DNA of 64,000 bases from NCBI GenBank assembly GCA_042571405.1, contig JBHPHU010000003.1, forward strand, positions 3,838 to 67,837, read 5' to 3'. How positions within the stretch are numbered: the stretch's first letter is position 1; each line of letters starts with the position of its first letter. Shown in pieces: positions 46,062 through 56,325 of the stretch. Made by a program: the position numbers and the translations under genes. The DNA comes from Candidatus Omnitrophota bacterium. Lineage in GTDB: Bacteria; Omnitrophota; Gorgyraeia; Gorgyraeales; Gorgyraeaceae. A model generated the notes under the pieces. That model was not told the DNA's origin. It made no database searches and saw nothing but the letters and a program-made list of their open reading frames with translations.

Positions 46062-46112
46062 TTGACGTCAAGGGTATATTATGGTATACTTATACTATTG
46101 TTTATAAAAGAA
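46062..46112 (+). promoter_or_regulatory. promoter block CTTGACGTCAAGGGTATATTATGGTATACTTATACTATTGTTTATAAAAGAATT (copy 1 of 2)
   Basis: TTGACG-17-TATACT; near-identical block at 49128-49180 upstream of the third gene of the leader cluster. Confidence 0.55.
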
Positions 46113-46128
46113 TTTTAGGAGGTATTTT

Positions 46129-47661
46129 ATGATAAAGCTCAAAGGAATTTTTTTTCTTGTTATAGTAGGATTATATCTGTGTGTTAATATATCCGATGCA
46201 TCTGCCCTAAGAATTCCATTGAAAGATGAAAAGTCTTTAGAAACAGTGTCCGGGGTAATGAAGGGTGAATTTACTAATAAATATGGAAAGCTATATGCAA
46301 CTGATGGGAAGGCAAAAGAAGGAAATAAAAATGTCGAAGATCTATTAGATGAAGCAGATGATTTAGGAATAATATTCGTAGATGAACATGGAAAAACTCT
46401 TACTATCGAAAAAATCCGTGATAATCTTATGGTTAACAACGATGAGATAGAAGGTTATCGTGGTGTTCAAATCTTCAGACTTAACGGTAATGACGGAGAA
46501 TTGAAAAGAAATGAAAAATTGTTGGTGTTTTTTAATCGTGGCGCGGGAATTTTTTGGAGGACTATTGACGGACTCTTTTCTATACGTGATAGAAATCATA
46601 TTGAAAGGTTAGAAGCAGAGACAGCAGTGAAAAAAAATATAGTTATTCATGATGAAAAACATGGCGATGTAGCAATGCATCGCGTAAAGTATTCTACGGG
46701 AGAATGGGGATATGAAAGCGATGAGGTTGTTGATAAACATTGGTATAGCTCAGGTTACAAACTTACGATACCTGCAGATAAAGTGAGGTCAGGCGAGATC
46801 AGCACAACTGGTGCCAAAGGAATCAATACTAGCACTACCGGCGGCGGCAATTATGACATAGGCGATTCTCCTACTCAAGGCTTATCTAGAAAAGACAAAA
46901 GAGAAATCGCGAAAAGACAGGCAAAGATAAAAGAAAAAATAGAGAAAGAATTGTACAATATGGCCTATAAAAAGCCGACGGGAGCAAAATATGAAAAGAT
47001 GAAAGAAATGGCATCTGAGATAGGTTATAAGGTTGAAACGAAGCACGAAGGAAACAGAGACTATGTATATGTATATACTGAAACTGGTCATACTATGGCA
47101 AGAGGCAGGGGTGCGCCTGCTAGTGATTCATATGTTGACCGTGATTATGGCGACGCAGACCTACTAGCAAGAGAAAAAGAAGTACTAAAAGCGGTAAATA
47201 GGGCTGATACGCTTCAAGAGGCTCAAGAAATAGCAACTAAAGCAGGTAAGCAGATTGAGCAGAGTGATAGTGGAACATGGTTATGCAGTAGCAGTGGTAT
47301 ACGCGAGGAGAGGCTAGCAAGAAAAGGCTGGGTTTCTAATTGTTTTAGTGACCTTACCTCTACAGAGCTTAGAGATGGAGAGCATTCTATAAAAGAGCTG
47401 GAAGAGTATACAAAGAAAAAACAGAGGCATCGTTCTTACTCGATGATCCATAAGGAGGTTGAGTCTCTTAGACGCTTAAAGCTACTAAAGAGAAAAAAGG
47501 TTGGCGGAATATATTATTATTTCCTAACCGATAGAGGTAAAAAATTATCCCAGCCCCAGATAAATGAATTAATCTCTATGTCTGAATTGCAAAAATATCA
47601 AATCCTCGAAACATCCACAGGGTTTAATATAGTTAATAATAAAATAGCCACCTTTTTATAA
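46129..47661 (+). CDS. leader-cluster protein 1: secreted/anchored hypothetical protein (N-terminal hydrophobic leader + ALRIP)
   Basis: MIKLKGIFFLVIVGLYLCVNISDASALRIPLKDE...; C-terminal ...RLKLLKRKKVGGIYYYFLTDRGKK winged-helix-like segment. Confidence 0.45.
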   Translation: MIKLKGIFFLVIVGLYLCVNISDASALRIPLKDEKSLETVSGVMKGEFTNKYGKLYATDGKAKEGNKNVEDLLDEADDLGIIFVDEHGKTLTIEKIRDNLMVNNDEIEGYRGVQIFRLNGNDGELKRNEKLLVFFNRGAGIFWRTIDGLFSIRDRNHIERLEAETAVKKNIVIHDEKHGDVAMHRVKYSTGEWGYESDEVVDKHWYSSGYKLTIPADKVRSGEISTTGAKGINTSTTGGGNYDIGDSPTQGLSRKDKREIAKRQAKIKEKIEKELYNMAYKKPTGAKYEKMKEMASEIGYKVETKHEGNRDYVYVYTETGHTMARGRGAPASDSYVDRDYGDADLLAREKEVLKAVNRADTLQEAQEIATKAGKQIEQSDSGTWLCSSSGIREERLARKGWVSNCFSDLTSTELRDGEHSIKELEEYTKKKQRHRSYSMIHKEVESLRRLKLLKRKKVGGIYYYFLTDRGKKLSQPQINELISMSELQKYQILETSTGFNIVNNKIATFL

Positions 47662-54402: not shown

Positions 54403-54423
54403 AGTTTTTCTAATATATGTTTT

Positions 54424-56325
54424 ATGCAAAAAAGATTTATTAAGCTCATATCATTTGTTACGATAGTGTTTTTATATATTACTGCAGCATATCCTGCCGA
54501 GACTGAAAAATTTCCAAATATACATAAGTTAAGGCCAGCGATAGGTGGATATGAAGACATAGAGAGTCTTTATTATTCTAGTTTCAGGAAAGATCTTATC
54601 AATGGTAAGACTTTTCGCATATTTGAAGTATTTGAGACAAAATCAGGCAACCTTACCAAAGATACAGCAGTAAAATTAATTGATACGGCGCATAAATTAT
54701 ATCTTTCGCGTAGAAAGGATTTAAGAGGAAAAACAGAATTTAAGGACCTATTGGAAAAAATGGAATATATATTGCATAGCTTTATATATGGGGCCATTGC
54801 TTATGAGTTAAATCAGCGCCCTGAAGGAAATAAGGCGCTAAAAGAGATCTTTTTTTTAACTGAAAAAAGGTTAGCAGAGCCTATAATAAAAGAATATTTT
54901 GATGAATTAGATAGCATCCCGAACGAAAAAGACAAGCCTGAAAAAATAATAGAGTATCTTATTGGTAATGACGAGTATAGCATTAAAGGGTTTTTTGAAA
55001 TAGCGCTCTTAAATGCAGAATTTGTTTCTAAGAATGCTATTGCAAATCTAGAGAGCATGCTGGGCAATGACAAGAAGAACGCAATTAATAAGACGGTGAA
55101 TTCTATCATTGAATCGGTAGAAGAGATTCAAGGTTTAGAAAAACTAGAGAGAGACTCTAAAATAACTATTCAAGACGACTTAAAGAATTTTGTGGATGAC
55201 GCTATATTAAATTTTAAGCAACTCAATCATGAAGAAGTATCTAAAGCTATTCTCAATATAGACAATAAACTTGCCAGTCGTGACTTAACAGGAGACTTTC
55301 GATATTCAGATCTATATGATGAAAAGAACACATCTCTTTCATTTTTCAGATTATTGCCTGCGTTGGCGGCAGAGGCATATATAATAGATTCAACTGATAA
55401 TGAATATATAGAGTTCTTATCTGTCTTAGAAAATTCAGGCATGAAAGAACGCTACAGGAACAAGGCATTGGAAGCCCTATTGGCTTTTCAGGCATTAAAG
55501 TTAAAACAGAACAATAAACCATGCGCAGCTGTTAGGATCAGGCTTGGGTTGGGAGAGTTATGGAGCTATCTTAACAACGGCTATGTTTATAATATCAGGC
55601 ATATACCCCCTTTGCCACCCATAGTCGAGAAATTAGATAAGTTTATAGAGAGACTTTCTGTTTTAAGAGAACTGAAAGAAATACGTGGAATACCTAATGG
55701 TGTTAAAAGCAAAAAACTCATATCAGGTTACGCGCGCAAGTTAAAAAACCTGGGCATAAATATAACAGAAATTTTATACAAGAACGAGAAACAGCTTATA
55801 AGTGAGAAAAGCAGGATATTGAAACAAGTCAATTTAATAAAATTGGAAATGATAAGTAATTTCCTGCAGGATAAGTACGTAGAGACTTTGCAGTCTATGA
55901 AAGAAATGACAGAGCTTGTTAAAGCAGACATAAAAGCTGCTATGTACGTAGCTACCCCTTCAGATATTAAAAAATTATTACCGGTCTTATTGGCCCAAAG
56001 CATTATAGTAAATTCAACAGTAAAGGAGTACCGGGATTTTGTAGATACTTTGAATGTTTTTGGATATTCTAAGAATGAGGCTATGGGGGAGTTGAGAAAA
56101 TTAGTGGTTACCCAGGCATTGAAGAGCAATAATCTTCTTACTGATCCTGCCGCCGAGTTTTTAAGAATTCCAGCAATAATGTTACGTGACCTTTTAGAGG
56201 ACGAATATATCTCTATAATCTCCAATATACCTATTTCACTGGATGCTCCAAGAATAGACTTTGAACAATTAAAGGCGCACAAGATAATAAGAAACAGTAA
56301 AAACTCTACTGCATATTTCCTTTGA
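54424..56325 (+). CDS. leader-cluster protein 5: hypothetical protein with N-terminal leader + KLRPAIGGY motif
   Basis: MQKRFIKLISFVTIVFLYITAAYPAETEKFPNIHKLRPAIGGYED...; otherwise alpha-helical, no recognised domain. Confidence 0.45.
   Translation: MQKRFIKLISFVTIVFLYITAAYPAETEKFPNIHKLRPAIGGYEDIESLYYSSFRKDLINGKTFRIFEVFETKSGNLTKDTAVKLIDTAHKLYLSRRKDLRGKTEFKDLLEKMEYILHSFIYGAIAYELNQRPEGNKALKEIFFLTEKRLAEPIIKEYFDELDSIPNEKDKPEKIIEYLIGNDEYSIKGFFEIALLNAEFVSKNAIANLESMLGNDKKNAINKTVNSIIESVEEIQGLEKLERDSKITIQDDLKNFVDDAILNFKQLNHEEVSKAILNIDNKLASRDLTGDFRYSDLYDEKNTSLSFFRLLPALAAEAYIIDSTDNEYIEFLSVLENSGMKERYRNKALEALLAFQALKLKQNNKPCAAVRIRLGLGELWSYLNNGYVYNIRHIPPLPPIVEKLDKFIERLSVLRELKEIRGIPNGVKSKKLISGYARKLKNLGINITEILYKNEKQLISEKSRILKQVNLIKLEMISNFLQDKYVETLQSMKEMTELVKADIKAAMYVATPSDIKKLLPVLLAQSIIVNSTVKEYRDFVDTLNVFGYSKNEAMGELRKLVVTQALKSNNLLTDPAAEFLRIPAIMLRDLLEDEYISIISNIPISLDAPRIDFEQLKAHKIIRNSKNSTAYFL

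Follow-up and report, generated by a model that had tools for sequence, protein, structure and literature searches.

In a 64,000-nucleotide (nt) stretch of the Candidatus Omnitrophota contig JBHPHU010000003.1 (the whole of which is called the window here), a solitary gene (g6) and four members of an upstream array of five consecutive plus-strand genes (g1 to g5) begin with homologous tags of about 40 residues, each composed of a signal-peptide-like segment and a following L-R-Pro-hydrophobic motif. Behind these tags the proteins continue into bodies without any BLASTP similarity to each other. In g1 to g5, basic residues and a hydrophobic segment are followed at residues 27–40 by LRIPL, LRPML, LRPAM, LRPMM and LRPAI, respectively; the motif recurs as LRPQL in g6 and, at residues 35–36, as LRVPV and LRVPL in the minus-strand genes 23414 and 24378. 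An earlier note on this DNA had described the array and these recurrences, and all of them are present. The best explanation, which we hold tentatively and at a little less than an even chance, is a two-part N-terminal export-and-sorting tag on hypervariable, effector-like cargo, specific to a small clade of Candidatus Omnitrophota.

The clustering of LRP-type motifs behind N-terminal hydrophobic segments is real and not due to chance. LRP occurs eight times in the 47 window proteins (18,704 amino acids, aa), five times at residues 30–38 behind a hydrophobic segment. The relaxed form LR(Px/xP)[MILV] occurs nine times, always at residues 27–38; all nine proteins belong to the 23 with a hydrophobic N-terminus and none to the other 24 (binomial P = 8e-9), one of the nine matches being an unrelated one in the first transmembrane segment of the sodium-symporter-like gene 20783. 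The motif is missing from other signal-bearing proteins of the window, for example 12132, the D-Ala-D-Ala carboxypeptidase 14958, BatD (35723) and the tetratricopeptide repeat protein 37581. Behind leaders other than the core type it is found four times (g1, 23414, 24378 and the unrelated transporter 20783), compared with about 0.07 expected by our own estimate from residue frequencies, which argues that the motif has a meaning of its own. The sequence MLRPFF at the start of 63123, also listed in the earlier note, precedes the hydrophobic segment, is missing from the orthologue in the syntenic locus L005 and is treated here as a chance occurrence.

The anatomy of the tag was compiled from 29 N-termini of the window and its relatives. 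Its parts follow each other in the order n-region, lysine, hydrophobic segment, proline and then Ala, Glu or Asp, spacer and LR motif. The n-region often reads MLN.H.K.STK and has a net charge of +2.7, against +0.8 for the C-terminal flank. It is followed, as in Sec-type leaders, by an uninterrupted hydrophobic h-region with Kyte-Doolittle peaks of 1.6–2.2. This segment is typically 17 residues long (range 14–24) and follows the unusually fixed consensus [LI]-I-S-L-I-L-A-Q-V-F-L-x-x-G-x-x-Y, with the proline directly behind it in most cases. The spacer comprises 0–31 residues and contains NKNT.SIYI in one subgroup; the motif always comes after the segment, but not at a constant position. The motif consensus is L-R-(P/x)(x/P)-[MILV]-x-[F/G], with L in 29 of 29 tags, R in 28, Pro at +2 or +3 in 27 and M, I, L or V at +4 in all of them (Met in 14); F or G is enriched at +5/+6.

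By their sequences the tags fall into two tiers, a core family of homologous tags (g2 to g6) and a looser set with LRxP[MILV] behind different leaders. A hidden Markov model (HMM) of the tag recognises a homologous module at 35–73 bits, with g2 to g6 at 35–61 bits and 24378 and 23414 matched only marginally. The common leader once claimed for the whole array is thus confirmed for g2 to g5, and for g6, but not for g1; the leader of the latter is signal-like with a plausible SDA↓S cleavage site, differs from the core tag and gives no match to the HMM, though g1 has both the LRxP motif and the promoter block. Small-x-small cleavage-like sites are found 3–14 residues before LRxP in peripheral members (SDA↓S, ICA↓E, ALA↓S) and in a PESAA↓NKN subgroup. 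In g6, a solitary cassette served by a promoter of its own, a cleavage-like site of the classical kind (ALA↓S) precedes LRPQL by 13 residues.

At the DNA level the 5′ ends of the tagged genes show weak similarity. In 23 motif instances the invariant positions are encoded by five different Leu, three Arg and four Pro codons, and this synonymous variety points to selection on the amino acids and not to recent DNA duplication. Leu and Arg codons are skewed to TTA and AGR, respectively; Arg is AGR in 22 of the 23 motifs compared with 65% genome-wide. The coordinates of the tagged genes and of the elements in front of them are given in Table 1.

Table 1 Positions of genes with leader and motif, promoter elements and RNA leaders. 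Positions refer to the window unless a related locus (L001 and so on) is named; bits and E values are those of the tag HMM; the locus-tag prefix of the genome is ACFL2G
Feature	Position	Strand	Size (aa)	Remarks
g1	46129–47661	+	510	peripheral; LRIPL at nt 46207–46221
g2	47724–49043	+	439	core; tag nt 47724–47846 (MFCLQQTKNRISTKLISLILAQVFLCAGIVYPDAAHLRPML); 60.6 bits; LRPML
g3	49403–52741	+	1112	core; tag nt 49403–49504; 56.8 bits; LRPAM; start as called by NCBI, alternative ATG at 49382
g4	52768–54402	+	544	core; tag nt 52768–52869; 50.2 bits; LRPMM; MFC1620869.1, NCBI annotation 'sensor histidine kinase'
g5	54424–56325	+	633	core; tag nt 54424–54543; 47.1 bits; LRPAI; MFC1620870.1
g6	62032–63054	+	340	core; tag nt 62032–62157; 34.9 bits; LRPQL at residue 38; MFC1620876.1
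24378	24378–24971	-	197	peripheral; signal-like leader; LRVPL at nt 24852–24866; E = 0.033
23414	23414–24364	-	316	peripheral; signal-like leader; LRVPV at nt 24248–24262; E = 0.11
g1 promoter block	46062–46114	+		TTGACG-17 nt-TATACT, then TATACTT..TTATAAAAGAATT; second-best sigma-70 match in 45800–57100
g3-g4-g5 promoter block	49130–49181	+		TTGACA-16 nt-TATACT and TTATAAAAGAATT; best match in the region, 11/12 positions
g6 promoter block	61948–61994	+		same extended type as g1 and g3 blocks
Promoter extension	46085–46110, 49152–49177, 61971–61994			window
Promoter extension	L001 9769–9794; L002 9736–9761; L003 657–682; L006 2639–2664; L007 1206–1231; L009 1250–1275			other loci
Leader stem-loop	49309–49397	+		TTCGGGCATTGCC..GGCCTCTCTCCCATGG..GGGGCATGTCCGA; abuts Shine-Dalgarno sequence and start of g3
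RNA leader	L001 9807–9880; L002 9807–9880; L003 737–810; L007 1250–1315; L008 1100–1180; L009 1321–1395; L005 1–70			other loci

An all-against-all BLASTP comparison of the bodies returned one orthologous trio and two marginal ATPase-domain matches only, so the tagged window proteins are not paralogues along their full length. The modular element proposed in the earlier note is borne out by the dissimilar bodies, the HMM scores and the recurrence of the tag on unrelated Omnitrophota proteins. The g3 body contains DUF3417 (Pfam, E = 1.3e-10) and a divergent GT-B, alpha-glucan-phosphorylase-like region; its match to PDB entry 9l6i is weak, and the pyridoxal phosphate lysine is aligned to a Leu in a very weak and non-significant stretch of 0.7 bits. 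The 'complete' histidine-kinase core formerly assigned to g4 is secure in its ATPase domain (HATPase_c, E = 5e-14), while the phospho-acceptor with the H-box reaches only E = 0.04 (HisKA). A weak winged-helix signal was found at the C-terminus of g1. The bodies of g2 and g5 belong to no known family, that of g2 being without any Pfam match at E ≤ 10; an ADP-ribosyltransferase assignment of g2, based on an H-G-T...E-I-S-V pattern seen by eye, was dropped for lack of such Pfam support. The AlphaFold model of g2, predicted with no alignment, was unusable (predicted local distance difference test score 34), as structure prediction fails on such orphan bodies. The peripheral 24378 is an adenylyl/cytidylyltransferase similar to phosphopantetheine adenylyltransferase (PPAT; CTP_transf_like E = 1e-10; PRK00777 80 bits, below the cut-off), and 23414 resembles P-loop kinases or nucleoside triphosphatases below threshold. 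PADLOC gave no significant match for g1 to g6; its only matches were weak ones of 23414 and 24378 to P-loop and nucleotidyltransferase models, and the single PHROGs match was the generic kinase ATPase domain of g4.

Outside the window the tag precedes a carbohydrate phosphorylase (L005:1066), MraZ in several matching stretches (P0012) and HEAT repeats (L004:3), as well as sub-threshold HATPase_c_2 (P0007), winged-helix (L010:3661) and protein-kinase-like (L004:3865) bodies. A further case is L001:10248, a tagged protein of 1175 aa (L001 10248–13775, equal to L006 3118–6645; orthologue at L002 11335–13434), in which a complete extracytoplasmic function (ECF) sigma region at residues 190–337 (TIGR02937, 44.5 bits, cut-off 42.9) is combined with a C-terminal anti-sigma-type HATPase_c_2 domain. 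It is highly unusual for a sigma factor to follow an export-type leader. All recognisable body domains are of the cytoplasmic type and none is typically periplasmic or surface-located; the paradox of cytoplasmic-type enzymes behind a Sec-like leader, already raised in the earlier note, has become stronger with the added ECF sigma, MraZ, winged-helix, kinase-like, phosphorylase-like and PPAT-like members.

The tag is found on about 20 further proteins beyond the window. When 1.84 billion representative proteins were searched exhaustively with a profile, only 14 matches at E ≤ 1e-3 were obtained, comprising four window proteins, nine new proteins with the tag on unrelated bodies and one tandem-repeat artefact (P0008), which was rejected as a tag carrier. 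Pattern scans detected three loci in species-representative genomes, all of them Omnitrophota metagenome-assembled genomes (MAGs), and nine metagenome loci, but none in viral contigs. All named relatives with a tag are likewise Candidatus Omnitrophota MAGs. The locus scans were confined to the canonical pattern K[LI]IS[LI]I[LM]A, and since they required this hydrophobic segment the taxonomic range is a lower bound. Pfam and NCBIfam contain no model matching the isolated tags even at E ≤ 10 (ten tags in the Pfam scan), and full-text literature searches returned no description of the tag. Full-length g3 and 24378 retrieved only themselves from 5.8 billion proteins in word-index searches, an insensitive method by which the tag alignment retrieved two short proteins only.

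The first part of the tag would act as a leader of the Sec/signal recognition particle type which inserts with the N-terminus inside and the C-terminus outside (N-in/C-out) and takes the body across the cytoplasmic membrane. Charge distribution sets the topology of membrane insertion (positive-inside rule), and from the charges of the two flanks an N-in/C-out orientation is predicted; together with the segment length and the terminating proline, both typical of signal peptides, this argues for export or for an outward-facing anchor. A clear second transmembrane segment is missing from all bodies, with two marginal hydrophobic peaks only (g2 and P0006). The second part of the tag, the short linear motif, would serve as a recognition box for a second step near the new N-terminus, where a dedicated protease, a chaperone or an outer-envelope transporter might read it. 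Its presence behind divergent leaders with ordinary cleavage-like sites suggests that it works independently of the leader sequence. Because Pro directly follows Arg in 12 of 29 tags, cleavage after Arg is unlikely, and the variable residue before Leu argues against a cut by signal peptidase I at this position; LRxP[MILV] may thus be bound by a partner rather than cut.

Other sorting signals do not fit the tags. No tag has a Cys after G/A/S in lipobox register ([LVI][ASTVI][GAS]C). Twin-arginine translocation (Tat) is not indicated by an RR in any n-region or by a TAT_signal match in the Pfam and NCBIfam scans, and type IV pilins (N_methyl, TIGR02532) differ in that the tags have Lys before the h-region, no Gly at −1, no Glu at +5 and no model match at E ≤ 10. 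The element is N-terminal, and the bodies have neither a C-terminal transmembrane segment nor an NCBIfam match to C-terminal signals of the LPXTG/sortase, PEP-CTERM/exosortase or GlyGly-CTERM/rhombosortase kind. Motifs in or after the signal peptide which route unrelated proteins to a particular export site or translocase are known from the specialised Gram-positive leaders YSIRK-G/S and KxYKxGKxW with the accessory-Sec AST domain, the latter requiring the first ~20 mature residues. The tags have no match to YSIRK, KxYKxGKxW or ESPR in Pfam or NCBIfam, the lineage is a different one, and the cargoes of those systems are surface adhesins. The TonB box and CsgA N22 are short elements about 5–25 residues from the mature N-terminus that are read by a second machine after Sec export; they belong to single protein families and not to unrelated bodies, and are without sequence similarity to the tag.

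The cargo would consist of hypervariable cassettes, often with a common promoter and leader, and would act in another cell as the effector arsenal of a host-dependent nanobacterium, which is the least certain step. Domains that require ATP, DNA or RNA polymerase, and hence a cytoplasm, can be reconciled with an export leader in three ways, namely by action in another cell, by retention at the cytoplasmic face despite the charge rule or by two isoforms per gene. The first is the most economical and the one we lean towards, though with a confidence just under one half, because the motif is independent of the leader, the cargo turns over fast in a conserved frame (see below), the regulatory leader is often common to the genes and the lifestyle of the phylum is suitable. 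Omnitrophota are described as ultra-small and host-dependent or predatory, possessing Tad/type IV pilus systems and ATP/ADP translocases (PMC10066038).

Several observations weigh against export and sorting of effectors. Intracellular-type domains are equally expected if the proteins never leave the cytoplasm, and many core members have no canonical small-x-small site before LRxP (YPDAA↓H, YPA↓D), so that they are perhaps uncleaved anchors. The spacer length is variable, the N-in/C-out topology follows from a statistical sequence rule only, and no suitable processing enzyme or transporter is encoded in the window. The toxin-antitoxin and defence-type neighbours of the tagged genes fit any accessory island and not effectors specifically. 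Furthermore, we know of no bacterial route by which Sec-exported proteins reach the cytoplasm of a prokaryotic host.

A more specific version of the export reading makes LRxP[MILV] the bacterial counterpart of the Plasmodium PEXEL (RxLxE/Q/D) and oomycete RxLR motifs, so that Sec leader and box together would mark effectors for delivery into the cytoplasm of a prokaryotic host; we regard it as rather unlikely. The arsenal would then include an ECF sigma factor, MraZ repeats, histidine- and Ser/Thr-kinase-like proteins, glucan-phosphorylase-like enzymes and nucleotidyltransferases, would turn over fast in hot spots and would be switched on via the common promoter and the attenuator-like RNA leader. 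PEXEL and RxLR proteins combine a signal sequence, a short conserved motif a few tens of residues further on at most and unrelated effector bodies, and form large lineage-specific families whose genes lie in variable regions. The likeness to the tag lies in this architecture, with the motif behind the h-region in 29 of 29 tags and the bodies unrelated, and is a functional analogy only. The motif sequences differ, and the eukaryotic motifs operate in an endoplasmic reticulum/Golgi route with known proteases such as plasmepsin V.

The main rival, about equally improbable in our view, is that the segment tethers the bodies on the cytoplasmic side, so that regulators, kinases and enzymes would be anchored to the membrane from within, with LRxP[MILV] as a juxtamembrane partner site or as the release site of regulated proteolysis; signalling or conflict/defence systems could be organised in this way. 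All recognisable domains are of the cytoplasmic type (ECF sigma with anti-sigma-type kinase, MraZ, winged helix, HATPase, kinase-like, P-loop), HipA-like, AbiEii, Phd/YoeB and PDC-S27-like genes are neighbours, and the signal-peptidase site is unclear in many core members, all of which fits such a tether. A cut just before the invariant Leu would moreover expose N-terminal Leu-Arg, which is a good bacterial N-degron. Pro-sigma-K and pro-sigma-E resemble the tagged L001:10248 in bearing a hydrophobic N-terminal extension on a sigma factor, and like membrane-tethered regulators they are released by a dedicated protease. However, no SpoIVFB- or SpoIIGA-like protease was found near the tagged genes, and the tag differs from these pro-sequences in its charge pattern, which predicts export, and in its occurrence on enzymes and kinases. 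A tether needs either an N-out/C-in topology or a peripherally inserted pro-sequence as in Bacillus pro-sigma-K, and the charges of +2.7 and +0.8 predict the opposite orientation; in known N-out anchors such as ZipA the N-tail is neutral and the C-flank strongly basic. The 17-residue segment with its following Pro resembles a signal peptide, cleavage-like sites of the classical kind are present in peripheral members, PADLOC matched none of the core proteins (with the two weak matches on 23414 and 24378), and it is not obvious why metabolic-type bodies (phosphorylase-like, PPAT-like) should require release from a tether. If the tether should nevertheless be true, these proteins would represent a new class of membrane-tethered regulators.

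A still less probable explanation is an ordinary inherited signal peptide without any sorting role, behind which new genes recombine as parts of a promoter-leader-signal cassette, LRxP[MILV] merely optimising the beginning of the mature protein for export by Sec or for processing by signal peptidase. Promoter and leader are often common to the tagged genes, a tag remnant beside a tagged gene (see below) indicates that the 5′ module moves and recombines in one piece, and the TTA/AGR skew fits common descent. In phytoplasmas, Sec export alone puts the effectors with the SVM signal into the host cytoplasm. This signal (pfam 12113), a signal peptide of conserved sequence on effectors of variable sequence such as SAP11 and SAP54, is a precedent for this view (PMC8026896). 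It is also the closest bacterial precedent for the tag as a whole, as a conserved N-terminal signal peptide on variable effectors of a host-dependent bacterium. The Pfam scan of ten tags at E ≤ 10 gave no SVM match, however, and SVM has no downstream LRxP-type motif; phytoplasmas are wall-less and live inside host cells, while the present genome has peptidoglycan-related genes (14958, 28297). Against an ordinary signal peptide, LRxP[MILV] also stands behind non-homologous leaders (g1, 23414, 24378, L010_3661, L004_3865), is kept across spacers of 0–31 residues with synonymous codon turnover and is missing from other secreted proteins of the genome (12132, 35723, 37581 and others); the cytoplasm-type cargo is also left unexplained.

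Hardly credible is an internal translation start, in which the Leu-Arg codons (TTA AGG/AGA) would be a Shine-Dalgarno-like sequence ~6 nt before an ATG at +4 and each gene would yield two products, a long one that is exported or anchored and a short one in the cytoplasm. Although Met at +4 in 14 of 29 tags and at +3 in four more (2.2% Met overall), the AGR preference at Arg and the prospect of two isoforms that resolve the paradox of cytoplasmic domains behind an export leader speak for it, 9 of 23 motifs have no start-capable codon at +3/+4 (ATA, ATT, GTT, CTT), the invariant Leu uses five codons of which several destroy the Shine-Dalgarno-like sequence, Pro is kept as an amino acid, LRPM forms leave too short a spacing and the codon skew is explicable by common descent.

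A conserved leader on variable cargo is a known kind of system; the motif, the lineage and the type of cargo are undescribed. Omnitrophota are widespread, uncultured and thought to be host-dependent, and so far neither their effector repertoire nor an export code has been defined. As the tag is searchable, candidate exported or host-directed proteins can be listed, and the machine that reads it can be sought by co-occurrence across genomes. It also makes testable why sigma-factor, kinase and nucleotide-enzyme domains follow export-type leaders, a puzzle which has been raised for the giant Omnitrophota proteins, too. Whether exported or tethered, the tagged proteins would carry an undescribed protein-sorting element, and the RNA leader in front of them is a candidate for a new cis-regulatory RNA.

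The tagged genes are concentrated in hot spots of gene turnover. The array is flanked by the ribonucleotide reductase gene and dcd on one side and, on the other, by genes for an AbiEii-like nucleotidyltransferase, gpmA, a small mechanosensitive-channel-type membrane protein, a 1041-aa GspK-like pseudopilin and the 63123 product. These flanking genes are 57–96% identical between the window and L005, L007, L008 and L010/L011, while the contents of the dcd-gpmA interval have nothing in common between loci except the tag. One tagged gene lies in this interval in L013 to L015, two in L005, three (confirmed) in L010/L011 and five in the window. Those of L010/L011 sit behind a giant open reading frame (ORF) truncated at its N-terminus, which encodes at least 2591 aa with WD40 beta-propellers (L012 1–7776; also L011 1–5220) directly upstream of the tagged-gene array. 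A second hot spot upstream of hisG holds three tagged genes in L004 and one in L016. In L013 to L015 the single tagged gene is immediately followed by a decayed tag remnant, MLNCQNKIFTKLIAL (..FNMLNCQNKIFTKLIALHVF..; L013 11142–11318, L014 11397–11573, L015 7732–7908), which is evidence of the loss of a cassette that left its 5′ end behind. The g6 cassette is missing from L005; in the window it is flanked by an imperfect 11-nt direct repeat, CAG[GA]TCTTT[GA]A (61917–61933, 63045–63060), which could be a target duplication or chance.

Frequent neighbours of tagged genes are HipA-like, PDC-S27-like ATPase, AbiEii and Phd/YoeB genes of the toxin-antitoxin or defence type. The repeat which was said to bracket the array is made up of copies of the dcd 3′ end: the last ~55 nt of the dcd coding region (42804–42858) recur at 44421–44451 and 45930–45984, after a HipA-like gene (43559–44422) and an ATPase_2/DUF234 gene (44545–45930; PADLOC PDC-S27, E = 1.6e-44), and there is no copy downstream of the array. 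Since the copies follow the two inserted genes, both missing from L007, L008 and L013 to L015, the repeat marks these insertions and not the array. It looks like an att-type target duplication from successive cassette insertions.

The duplicated promoter block reported for two genes of the array was found again as a 36-nt block, 92% identical between 46079–46114 and 49146–49181, with a third related copy before g6. Its core, TTGAC-N17-19-TATACTT, is generic and present six times in the window, whereas the extension TATACTT-N6-16-TTATAAAAG(A/T)ATT has only three window copies, before g1, g3 and g6. The extension also precedes the first tagged gene in six other loci and was found only before tagged genes. 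The positions of the two best sigma-70 matches and the short intergenic gaps indicate two transcription units, g1-g2 and g3-g4-g5. Two hairpins (ggccaggtttaaacctggcc, gaagtctgcctttttggcagacttc) in the stretch from g2 to the g3 promoter (49043–49128) were missed by a consensus terminator scan and are probably the terminators of the g1-g2 unit.

An RNA leader of the form CTCGGGCATTGCC..GGCCTCTCTCCCATGG..AAGAGACATGCCCGGG separates the promoter from the first tagged gene and is followed by a T-run in most loci; the window copy has no T-run. Its 15-nt core GGCCTCTCTCCCATG is identical in nine loci, and RNAalifold predicts a long helix with compensatory changes in the basal part. No Rfam family matches the leader, which is a candidate attenuator or riboswitch-like element. 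With the common promoter extension and the terminator-like leader the arrays look co-regulated. A leader-peptide ORF in this RNA was rejected by eye, as the reading frames differ between loci, and the 'MPGFF' N-terminal extensions of some ORF calls represent the 3′ arm of the leader hairpin with the T-run and not protein.

Elsewhere in the window, a 1095-aa ORF (6439–9726) is without a Pfam match at E ≤ 0.001. The GspK-like pseudopilin (58790–61915) has a pilin-type N-terminus, a lamin-tail domain and a helix-hairpin-helix/type II secretion system K segment and is kept at 67–69% identity beside the hot spot in L005 and L010/L011. In L013 (5045–8638), L014 (5183–8893) and L015 (1518–5228) the annotation of the ribonucleotide reductase gene beside the hot spot includes an intein (Intein_splicing and a LAGLIDADG endonuclease); the window orthologue is located at 38543–42154 and comprises 1203 aa.

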